Below the pieces are notes generated by a model. The model was not told where the DNA came from. It saw nothing but the letters and a program-made list of their open reading frames with translations, and searched no databases. A stretch of 64,000 nucleotides of DNA from Escherichia coli (GTDB lineage Bacteria; Pseudomonadota; Gammaproteobacteria; Enterobacterales; Enterobacteriaceae): assembly GCF_003334255.1 (NCBI RefSeq), contig NZ_QOWU01000023.1; one strand, 5' to 3'. Both the position numbers and the translations under genes were made by a program. Below, piece by piece: positions 502 to 2,293 of the stretch (the first letter of the stretch is position 1; each line of letters begins with the position of its first letter).

Positions 502-1609
502 AACCGATGTTCCGGGATTATCTCCGTATTTTGACAAAAGAAATAACAAAGTTTACTGGCGTTACAGGCATCCCATAACAGGCAAAAATCACGGTCTCGG
601 CAGTATTGACCAGAAACTGGCAGAAACTATTGCAGCAGAAGCGAACAGCCGTCTTGCCCGGCAGCAAATGGAACAAATGCTCAGTCTGCAGGAGAAAATT
701 ATTAGTGATACCGGCGGTTCATCAACCGTTACCATTTTTCTGAATAATTACAGAAAAATTCAACAGGAAAGATATGAAAACGGCGAGATCAAACTCAACA
801 CGCTGAAACAGAAAGCGGCCCCTCTCAGGGTATTTGATGAACGTTTTGGCACCAGACCGTTAGATGCCATAACCGTAAAAGATGTGGTATCAGTACTGGA
901 AGAGTACAAGGCCAGAGGACATAACAGAATGGGACAAATTTTCAGGAAGGTACTGATCGATGTTTTCCGGGAAGCTCAGCAAACGGGCGATGTACCGCCA
1001 GGCTTTAACCCTGCAGAATCGGCAAAAAAACCGCAGGTGCGGATATCAAGACAGCGACTGACTTTTGATGAGTGGATGATGATTTATAACGCAGCGGAAA
1101 AGGATGGTTACTTTTTACAGCGCGGTATGCTGCTGGCACTGATGACAGGCCAGCGCCTTTCAGATATTTGCAAAATGCAATTTTCGGATATCCGGGATGG
1201 TTATCTTCATGTCGAACAGCAAAAAACAGGAACCCGGATTGCCATCCCTCTGGCTCTGCGTTGCGATAAATTAAATCTCACCCTGGATGATGTGGTGTCA
1301 TCCTGCCGCGATTGCGTTCTTAGTCCGTGGCTATTGCACCACCATCACGCGAAAGGGACAGCTAAGCGCGGCGGGATGGTTAAGCCAGCAACATTAACCG
1401 TTGCATTTAAAAAAGCCCGGGATTCTGTGGATTACAACTGGCGTGCTAATGGCACCCCTCCCTCTTTCCATGAGCAGAGATCTTTATCAGAGCGATTGTT
1501 CAGAGAGCAGGGGGTTGATACCAAAATTTTGCTAGGCCATTCGAATCAAAAAATGACCGATATTTACAACGACGCACGCGGTAAGGAATGGAAAAAACTG
1601 GTCATTTGA
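479..1609 (+). CDS. int: Phage tyrosine integrase (lambda Int family)
   Basis: 376-aa ORF with the length and xis-int arrangement of a lambdoid integrase; it ends 45 bp from the ompW stop codon. Confidence 0.85.
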   Translation: MARPRKYKTDVPGLSPYFDKRNNKVYWRYRHPITGKNHGLGSIDQKLAETIAAEANSRLARQQMEQMLSLQEKIISDTGGSSTVTIFLNNYRKIQQERYENGEIKLNTLKQKAAPLRVFDERFGTRPLDAITVKDVVSVLEEYKARGHNRMGQIFRKVLIDVFREAQQTGDVPPGFNPAESAKKPQVRISRQRLTFDEWMMIYNAAEKDGYFLQRGMLLALMTGQRLSDICKMQFSDIRDGYLHVEQQKTGTRIAIPLALRCDKLNLTLDDVVSSCRDCVLSPWLLHHHHAKGTAKRGGMVKPATLTVAFKKARDSVDYNWRANGTPPSFHEQRSLSERLFREQGVDTKILLGHSNQKMTDIYNDARGKEWKKLVI

Positions 1610-1616
1610 TGACCAG
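1598..1616. terminator. Perfect inverted repeat (ctggtca-tttga-tgaccag) spanning the int stop codon; candidate terminator or att-core element
   Basis: 7-bp stem and 5-nt loop read directly from the sequence, followed by a T-run on the + strand. Confidence 0.4.
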
Positions 1617-1650
1617 TTTTGCAGAGGGGTTTTGCAGAGGTTTTGCAGAG
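1616..1650. repeat. Short tandem repeat, about three copies of a 12-bp unit (gttttgcagagg), between the int and ompW stop codons
   Basis: Read directly: gttttgcagagg / ggttttgcagagg / ttttgcagag. Confidence 0.7.
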
Positions 1651-1654
1651 AAAA

Positions 1655-2293
1655 TTAAAAACGATATCCTGCGGAGAACATAAACACCCACGGATCCAGT
1701 CGCACCGAGTCTTTTACGGTAGTAACACCAGATTTGTACTTAGCCGTGGTATCGATATCCATGTACCACACTGACATGTTAACCAACCAGTCACGGTTAA
1801 TCAGATAATCAACCCCCACCTGCCCGGCAGCTCCCCAGGAATCTTTCAGACTGAGATCGGAAAGCCCTGCCTCTTTGCCATGATCGTTAAATCCATTATC
1901 AAAGAAGGTGGTGTAGTTAATACCTGCCCCAACGTAAGGACGGAATTTGCTGCTGGCATCACCAAAATACCACTGCGCCATCAGTGTTGGTGGCAGATGA
2001 TGAACGGTTGCAATATCGCCGGTCGCCCGGGTGCCGATTTTATGGCGGAACGGCGTCGCTGCCAGTAATTCCACACCAATGTTGTCGGTCGCCATATAAG
2101 TAAACGTAAGGCCCAGTTGCGTGTTATTGGTCACGCTGAATCCACCCAGACTTCCTAACGTACCACCAGCACCTTCTGTTGGACGTACGGTTGCAGAACC
2201 TGCACGCATAAAAAATTCGCCTGCTTCATGCGCAAAGGCACTGCCAGAGAGAAGAGTTGTTACTGCCAAAGCCGCCACTGTTAACTTTTTCAT
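1655..2293 (-). CDS. ompW: Outer membrane protein W
   Basis: 212-aa ORF with a signal peptide (MKKLTVAALAVTTLLSGSAFA) and C-terminal ...GYRF; position next to yciC matches K-12 synteny. Confidence 0.95.
   Translation of the reverse strand: MKKLTVAALAVTTLLSGSAFAHEAGEFFMRAGSATVRPTEGAGGTLGSLGGFSVTNNTQLGLTFTYMATDNIGVELLAATPFRHKIGTRATGDIATVHHLPPTLMAQWYFGDASSKFRPYVGAGINYTTFFDNGFNDHGKEAGLSDLSLKDSWGAAGQVGVDYLINRDWLVNMSVWYMDIDTTAKYKSGVTTVKDSVRLDPWVFMFSAGYRF

Follow-up and report, generated by a model that had tools for sequence, protein, structure and literature searches.

The closest characterised relative of the integrase considered here is that of phage 21 (50% identity), which targets icd, as opposed to the ompW target of the present element. 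In the phage 21 GenBank record, three tandem subsites, labelled 'P1P2P3' and conforming to the consensus YYTTCCCCAAAA, are found 12 bp past the int stop codon. When read in the int sense, these appear as three copies of GTTTTGGGGAA, starting GTTTTG and spaced by 13 and 12 bp. An annotated terminator and then a surrogate icd 3' end follow the repeats, with a further, fourth copy of the repeat being located in the other attP arm, about 125 bp beyond the core. The e14 element found in the icd region of K-12 was also tried as an intE-type comparison but was set aside as uninformative, given that its int is not adjacent to att.

A more distant relative is the lambda integrase, with which the present protein shares 36% identity. 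From the lambda int stop codon onward come the contiguous 10-bp units TAATGATTTT|ATTTTGACTG|ATAGTGACCT, which correspond to P'3, P'2 and P'1, respectively. Two arm-type sites are located in the distal arm of lambda attP. Lambda Xis binds tandem direct repeats (X1/X1.5/X2) that are confined to the P arm, distal to int. The lambda target is intergenic (gal-bio) and lambda attP carries no gene tail. There is also no hairpin at the lambda int stop codon. Lambda int is subject to retro-regulation by sib, which is found past att.

As for ompW itself, PPompW prophages of STEC and EPEC strains integrate into this gene, creating 121-bp attL/R sequences, and most such prophages are reported as defective (Nakamura et al., 2021; PMC8112680). 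Those portions of the published description considered here define the att duplication and attB-in-prophage sites, with arm-type sites, a hairpin or repeat-number variation not being mentioned.

Phage origin of the int-ompW junction

In the 64-kb stretch of Escherichia coli DNA analysed (referred to below as the window), an ORF encoding an excisionase (xis; 253-501, + strand) overlaps the start of int (479-1609, + strand; stop codon TGA at 1607-1609), which encodes a 376-residue tyrosine integrase of the lambda family. In strain S792, where this region is identical, the first of these ORFs is annotated as 'excisionase', and in PPompW phage records it corresponds to xisE. Residues 2-71 of Int correspond to the Pfam family PF09003 (Arm-DNA-bind_1; E 1.6e-21), PF00589 is also present, and residues 14-375 align to the lambda Int structures 5j0n/1z1b (E about 1e-55). 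Convergent with int is ompW (1655-2293, - strand; stop codon at 1655-1657), shown by its ORF and by alignment to be chimeric, with yciC and yciB coming after this gene in the window. The window element, given an Int that is 100% identical and DNA that is 99.8% identical to published PPompW, is readily identified as the published PPompW prophage.

The space between int and ompW contains an inverted repeat followed by tandem direct repeats, which the original prediction suggested might correspond to the ompW terminator, reused as the attB core. Indeed, the hairpin lies between convergent genes and is terminator-like. Comparison with prophage-free strains was proposed as the means of separating host from phage sequence. 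Accordingly, complete E. coli genomes were considered. The int/hairpin/repeat/ompW junction was detected in 1729 of 5426 such genomes, with ompW itself being present in 5423 of the 5426. The similarity of K-12-type genomes to the window begins only at about 1651-1653, with all such matches starting at the same point. At the empty K-12 site, ompW is convergent with yciE and a different hairpin, GACCCCGTA..TACGGGGTC, lies between the two; neither the window hairpin nor the repeats are present at this ompW-yciE site, a result that favours their belonging to an att element.

The other end of the prophage was examined in S792, a strain whose sequence matches positions 1560-1760 of the window exactly and in which a lambdoid prophage of ~57 kb is found between ompW and yciE. 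At the far junction in this strain, a 126-bp ompW 3' remnant, annotated as 'OmpW, missing N-terminus', adjoins yciE. The hairpin and the three-copy array are absent from this yciE-side junction, where only a single copy of the repeat motif, belonging to the P arm, is found. When the two prophage junctions, int-side and far, were aligned with the empty site of K-12, the original ompW tail was placed at the far end and the tail found in the window, from 1655 to about 1745, was revealed to be a diverged copy brought by the phage.

These boundaries can be related to the 121-bp att duplication of PPompW phages, listed as a repeat_region in LC567822.1. Using an int offset of -22, together with alignment, this duplication was placed at 1653-1773 of the window, where it would comprise a phage-borne surrogate ompW 3' end and the core. 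The duplication is diverged from K-12 over about 1697-1745, while its right-hand end, the 28-bp block GTGGTATCGATATCCATGTACCACACTG (1746-1773), is identical in attP, attB and the int-side junction and is also common to the far junction. This block, which contains the inverted repeat GTGGTA..TACCAC, is the probable core/crossover region.

Because the K-12 site is without both features, because the ompW remnant lies at the far end and because of the published duplication, the crossover can be placed inside ompW and the hairpin and repeats assigned to the phage. That the hairpin is the host ompW terminator doubling as att core is thus scarcely credible and is taken as refuted, as the shared att region, including that portion of perfect identity, lies outside the hairpin and repeats, and as the hairpin is missing from both the empty site and the far junction. 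Rather, both features belong to the phage and occupy that portion of the int-proximal attP arm which separates int from the att duplication, while the recombination site lies within the ompW coding sequence. The earlier placement of these features exactly at the int/ompW junction thus holds for the annotated genes, with int ending at 1609 and the ompW stop codon found at 1655-1657, but not for the phage/host recombination junction, located ~100-125 bp deeper in ompW.

In the resulting chimeric gene, the 5' part is of host origin and the last roughly 30-40 codons are phage-supplied. Through this phage-supplied tail, the sequence of the last OmpW loop changes from NYKLGGAQQHD to KYKSGVTTVKD. This replaced loop, probably surface-exposed, differs between phage variants.

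The repeat array and the two arms of attP

The array comprises three exact copies of the 11-mer GTTTTGCAGAG, identified by repeat finding and motif comparison, at 1616-1626, 1629-1639 and 1640-1650 (+ strand), with spacing of 13 and 11 bp, in agreement with the originally reported presence of about three tandem repeats after the hairpin. Each copy is a candidate arm-type site of the int-proximal (P') arm. Copy 1 overlaps the last five bases of the hairpin 3' arm, and 4 nt separate the end of copy 3 from the ompW stop codon. The remainder of the 64-kb window offers only one match to GTTTTGCAGAG, with 1 mismatch. The array as a whole (1616-1650) lies inside no reading frame and contains no predicted promoter. 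A full-text literature search for the motif returned only unrelated primer matches.

The motif is not restricted to this arm. In S792, a fourth exact copy, GTTTTGCAGAG(G), is found at the far junction in the same orientation, 119 bp beyond the core. Indeed, across the ~60 kb of S792 DNA that span the prophage, these four places alone match the motif with no more than one mismatch. The uninterrupted attP, in which int, the hairpin, the three repeats, the ompW tail, the core and the P arm succeed one another, was found in several viral contigs. Across three versions of attP with diverged P arms, the motifs are located at identical positions (+28, +41, +52 and +305; core at 171). Within the P arm, conservation is highest in a block terminating at the fourth motif copy, with similarity falling off sharply past this point. 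A single clear copy was found in this distal arm, a second, inverted P2-like copy being represented only by weak matches (6-7 of 8 positions).

The original prediction had considered both integrase and IHF arm-type sites. Neither the repeats nor the hairpin conform to the IHF consensus, a strict match to which, AATCAATCAGTTA, is found solely in the P arm, about 20 bp core-proximal of the fourth motif copy. This IHF site is present in two of the attP versions and is one base off (ATCAG) in the third (L061).

To compare the layout with that of related elements, viral contigs encoding Int relatives were scanned. As most prophage contigs end at the int stop codon, about eight loci offered usable downstream DNA. 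In ushA-adjacent relatives, whose Int proteins are 55-58% identical to that encoded in the window, three copies of GTTTTGCAG are found with the same 13/11 spacing, while Klebsiella phage Kp4865-4 and the potC-adjacent phage 813R8 present three copies of GTTTTGATAA and of GTTTTGGrGAr, respectively. By contrast, no obvious repeats follow the int stop codon in one locus (L075) encoding a 68% identical Int, an unexplained exception that is possibly a decayed element. The motif also appears to vary with the N-terminal segment of Int, in that three PGLS-Y Ints are associated with GTTTTGCAG and PNLY or AGLY Ints with GGGG or GATAA variants, a pattern drawn from a small sample of six lineages.

The arrangement seen here resembles that of phage 21 in presenting, in addition to the int stop codon, three ~12-bp units, a terminator, a target-gene tail and a core in coding sequence. 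The two differ in the 3' half of the motif (GGGAA in phage 21 versus CAGAG here). In addition, the phage 21 terminator separates the repeats from the gene tail, whereas the one here is found on the int side of the repeats, overlapping the int stop codon, such that the repeats fall within the ompW 3'UTR. With lambda, the present system shares a heterobivalent Int with an arm-binding N-terminal domain and three adjacent units directly 3' of int. Lambda P'2, which reads ATTTTGACTG in the int sense, has TTTTG in common with the motif described here. The lambda P' sites are, however, about 50-85 bp from the core, as compared to about 110-145 bp here. As such, phage 21 attP can be regarded as a close structural analogue of the present arm arrangement and lambda attP as a more distant one.

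Were the repeats simply a functionless minisatellite in the spacer between int and the ompW tail, generated by slipped-strand events or unequal crossover, then differences in copy number between strains would be expected. Such differences exist. Among individually inspected genomes, two units were found in L021, in which int is frameshifted, and in L023, three in the window and in most genomes, four in L020, and five in L019 (O157:H7 strain NE122). Exact matches to four- and five-copy arrays came mainly from O157:H7 strains. Because copy-class counts derived from BLAST identity bands are confounded by the joining of repeated pieces, reliable copy-number data are limited to the individually inspected loci and to the three-copy figure, namely, identity of 99% or better to a three-copy query for at least 1283 of the 1730 carrier records. 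Three copies is thus the strongly predominant state, although slippage or unequal exchange does occur and, given the range of two to five, exactly three copies are not strictly required.

The earlier description of the array as a slipped-strand hotspot is accordingly true as a property, with 2, 3, 4 or 5 copies being found across E. coli genomes, yet describes variation rather than function. As a full account of the repeats, a functionless minisatellite is quite unlikely when set against this predominance of three copies, the fixed offset of the fourth copy in the other arm, the retention of the same 13/11 three-copy array in ushA-adjacent phages despite the divergence of their Int proteins, and the presence of arrays built of other motifs in phage 21, Kp4865-4, 813R8 and lambda.

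The repeats could instead bind Xis or another accessory DNA-bending protein and not Int. Their tandem, direct arrangement and a spacing of roughly one helical turn recall lambda X1/X1.5/X2 and, like the presence of xis at 253-501, are in line with such a role. At the same time, the repeats are found in the int-proximal arm, at the place of lambda P'1-P'3 and of the phage 21 'P1P2P3' subsites, and the presence of one copy in the other arm is what bridging by Int would predict. The repeats also offer no match to the IHF consensus, for which the sole strict match is in the P arm, beside the fourth copy. Binding of Xis or a similar protein is therefore very unlikely.

Identification of the repeats as integrase arm-type sites, one of the options raised originally, has the support of the fourth copy in the other arm, the layout seen in relatives and the arm-binding domain of Int. 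Int presents a separate N-terminal arm-DNA-binding domain, the P' cluster lies directly 3' of int, and copies of the short motif, which bears no relation to the core, are present in both attP arms, away from the site of crossover. The phage origin of the repeats, their position relative to the core, the distribution of the motif, the family-wide layout and the arm-binding domain are matters of direct observation. The three repeats very probably serve as P'-type arm sites bound by the N-terminal domain of the integrase.

The manner in which such sites would function can be proposed. A PPompW phage would recombine inside ompW, at a core found at about 1746-1773, bringing its own last ~120 bp of ompW so that the gene would be intact after integration. 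The GTTTTGCAGAG units would be the counterparts of lambda P'1-P'2-P'3 and would be bound by the N-terminal domain of the Int encoded next to them. The three units, together with the distal copy about 119 bp past the core, would let Int bridge the arms and the core, probably with the help of IHF-induced bends, as the recombination complex assembles.

The hairpin at the int stop codon

The original prediction described an inverted repeat with a 7-bp stem spanning the int stop codon. Such a structure was confirmed by repeat finding and folding, with its stem proving to be longer than noted, namely, a perfect 12-bp inverted repeat (1594-1620). Its arms, AAAACTGGTCAT (1594-1605) and ATGACCAGTTTT (1609-1620), are separated by a 3-nt loop, TTG, with the int stop codon (TGA, 1607-1609) running from the loop into the 3' arm by one base. 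In the core of the stem (1598-1605/1609-1616), 4 of 8 pairs are G-C, such that the stem is moderately G+C-rich. Four 12-bp inverted repeats with a perfect stem and a loop of 3-8 nt were found in the window, as compared to none in 20 mononucleotide shuffles. RNA folding of the hairpin yielded z-scores of -5.2 for the - strand and -4.0 for the + strand, with none of 200 shuffled sequences folding as well.

On the ompW strand (-), the stop codon is followed by four bases, the three repeat units, a stem-loop of 8-12 bp and UUUUUU, this U6 tail being the complement of 1592-1597 and lying 35 nt past the ompW stop codon. On the int strand (+), the hairpin is followed by a U4 tail (1617-1620), at the int stop codon. 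On each strand, then, a stable stem-loop followed by a U-tract is found past a stop codon of that strand, as in an intrinsic terminator. The hairpin was not listed by a consensus terminator scan, likely because four bases of the T-run are taken up into the maximal 12-bp stem, such that the tail criterion of the scan fails; this is a limit of the scan rather than positive evidence against a terminator. In having a perfect stem-loop bordered by an A-run and, at the opposite end, a T-run, the hairpin resembles bidirectional terminators found between convergent genes, from which it differs in that the stem is only moderately G+C-rich and the 5' arm codes for the end of Int.

The hairpin is kept in diverged phage variants that present many substitutions in the adjoining ompW tail, with L022 presenting one stem mismatch and L007 an altered loop. 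No compensatory substitutions in the stem were seen among the variants compared. As the 5' arm is the coding sequence for the last Int residues, it is constrained by the C-terminal codons of the protein. Still, the 813R8 Int also ends in KLVI, yet 813R8 is without the hairpin, indicating that it is the non-coding 3' arm that creates the structure. Terminator-like hairpins also occur in the equivalent module of Kp4865-4 and the ushA-adjacent relatives, where they lie between the repeats and the gene tail.

On balance, the hairpin would appear to be a bidirectional intrinsic terminator, better suited to ompW than to int. Since integration parts ompW from the native ompW/yciE terminator, which stays behind at the far prophage end, the phage module must supply a new ompW 3' end. 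The hairpin and U6 tail would act as a phage-supplied, factor-independent terminator of the rebuilt ompW transcript, while the hairpin and U4 tail would provide a weaker end to, or stabilise, int transcripts. The integrated ompW would also gain a new 3'UTR, made up of the arm-site array and the new terminator.

This 3'UTR raises the possibility that the repeats act at the level of RNA. With the ompW stop codon (1655-1657) on one side and the hairpin/U6 on the other, the array would be co-transcribed with ompW, yielding a 3'UTR of ~60 nt containing three CUCUGCAAAAC units, the terminator hairpin and U6, which, in lysogens, could affect how stable the ompW mRNA is or serve as the source of a small RNA. 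However, an Rfam scan of 1400-2400 matched no family, and homologous arrays are found near the unrelated genes icd, ushA and potC, as well as in lambda, where there is no such gene. Moreover, in phage 21 and apparently also in the ushA-adjacent relatives, the hairpin precedes the repeats in the direction of the target gene, meaning that the repeats there would not be transcribed with that gene. An RNA-level role for the repeats is, as such, highly improbable.

Taken as a whole, the region is best read, with good confidence, as the int-proximal arm of attP, comprising arm-type sites together with a replacement two-way terminator.

Significance for PPompW prophages

The motif, the four-site geometry, the terminator over the int stop codon and the polymorphism in copy number all appear to be undescribed so far. 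The feature is nonetheless real but ordinary, being of a textbook kind that would hold no surprise for the specialist, and it leaves the understanding of site-specific recombination unchanged. A broader reading, in which the att module couples lysogeny to the remodelling of OmpW, a phage and colicin receptor, with the number of arm sites tuning prophage excision, is rather unlikely.

In practical terms, the findings can be of use in prophage delimitation, in predicting mutual phage excision and in choosing minimal attP fragments for integration vectors. For the integrase group in question, which is unstudied, GTTTTGCAG offers a concrete candidate arm-site motif. For E. coli, the real phage/host boundary of a very common prophage lies inside ompW and not at the stop codon, with the carriers of the int-ompW junction including many Shiga-toxin strains.

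Attachment sites beyond the ompW junction

In five prophage contigs (L008, L009, L011, L013 and L061), an intact ompW-type attP was found within ~0-330 bp past the int stop codon, with the adjoining int genes being 96-100% identical. Because attP is uninterrupted in each case, it cannot have served as the insertion site of these elements. In loci of the L008 type, CCGCCACTTTAACTGCATGAC lies ~300 bp beyond the ompW-type attP and corresponds to the reverse complement of the 21-bp sequence termed 'attB-in-PP_1' in PMC8112680.

In two other viral contigs, L012 and L014, int, the hairpin, the repeats and the ompW tail are all the same as in PPompW. Downstream of the ompW-like tail, different DNA begins directly past ...CCATGTACCAGACCG, suggesting that these junctions represent secondary or alternative insertion sites for the PPompW integrase. 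In L012, the DNA past CCATGTACCAGACCG is coding-like and G+C-rich, and bears no resemblance to ompW. Tandem repeats were present in all of the relatives examined except the viral contig L075 (Int 68% identical), where none are seen past the int stop codon; decay or replacement of the arm may account for this.

Prophage cargo and a ykgJ fragment

The prophage of strain S792 is of the same type as that in the window, and the cargo at its far end (L004 1377-7530) includes an adhesin-like gene with a YadA-C-terminal-domain and a gene encoding a 1335-aa S6-family peptidase (autotransporter protease), whereas the O145 PPompW phages described in PMC8112680 carry an effector locus at the corresponding end. 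On the basis of this comparison, the cargo adjoining the P arm is variable between PPompW-type prophages.

A short pseudogene fragment annotated in RefSeq as 'YkgJ family cysteine cluster protein' (window ~2530-2620; locus L001 2381-2470) sits between ompW and yciC in K-12 and in the lysogen alike. PMC8112680 traces the origin of attB-in-PP_2, another prophage-borne attB, to the ykgJ-ecpE region.

The phage-borne end of OmpW

Protein comparison revealed that the phage-borne ompW 3' end (window 1655-1745, - strand) changes the last loop of OmpW, which reads KYKSGVTTVKD in the window versus NYKLGGAQQHD in K-12, with the flanking strands being the same in both. At this position, SYKSNGTPVKD or a longer loop, KYKSDGRKLAKGSYSD, is encoded by other phage variants. 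From the 8-strand barrel topology, the altered loop should be the last extracellular loop, and as such, approximately one-third of complete E. coli genomes may have a phage-rewritten OmpW surface loop. Such rewriting could mean receptor conversion.
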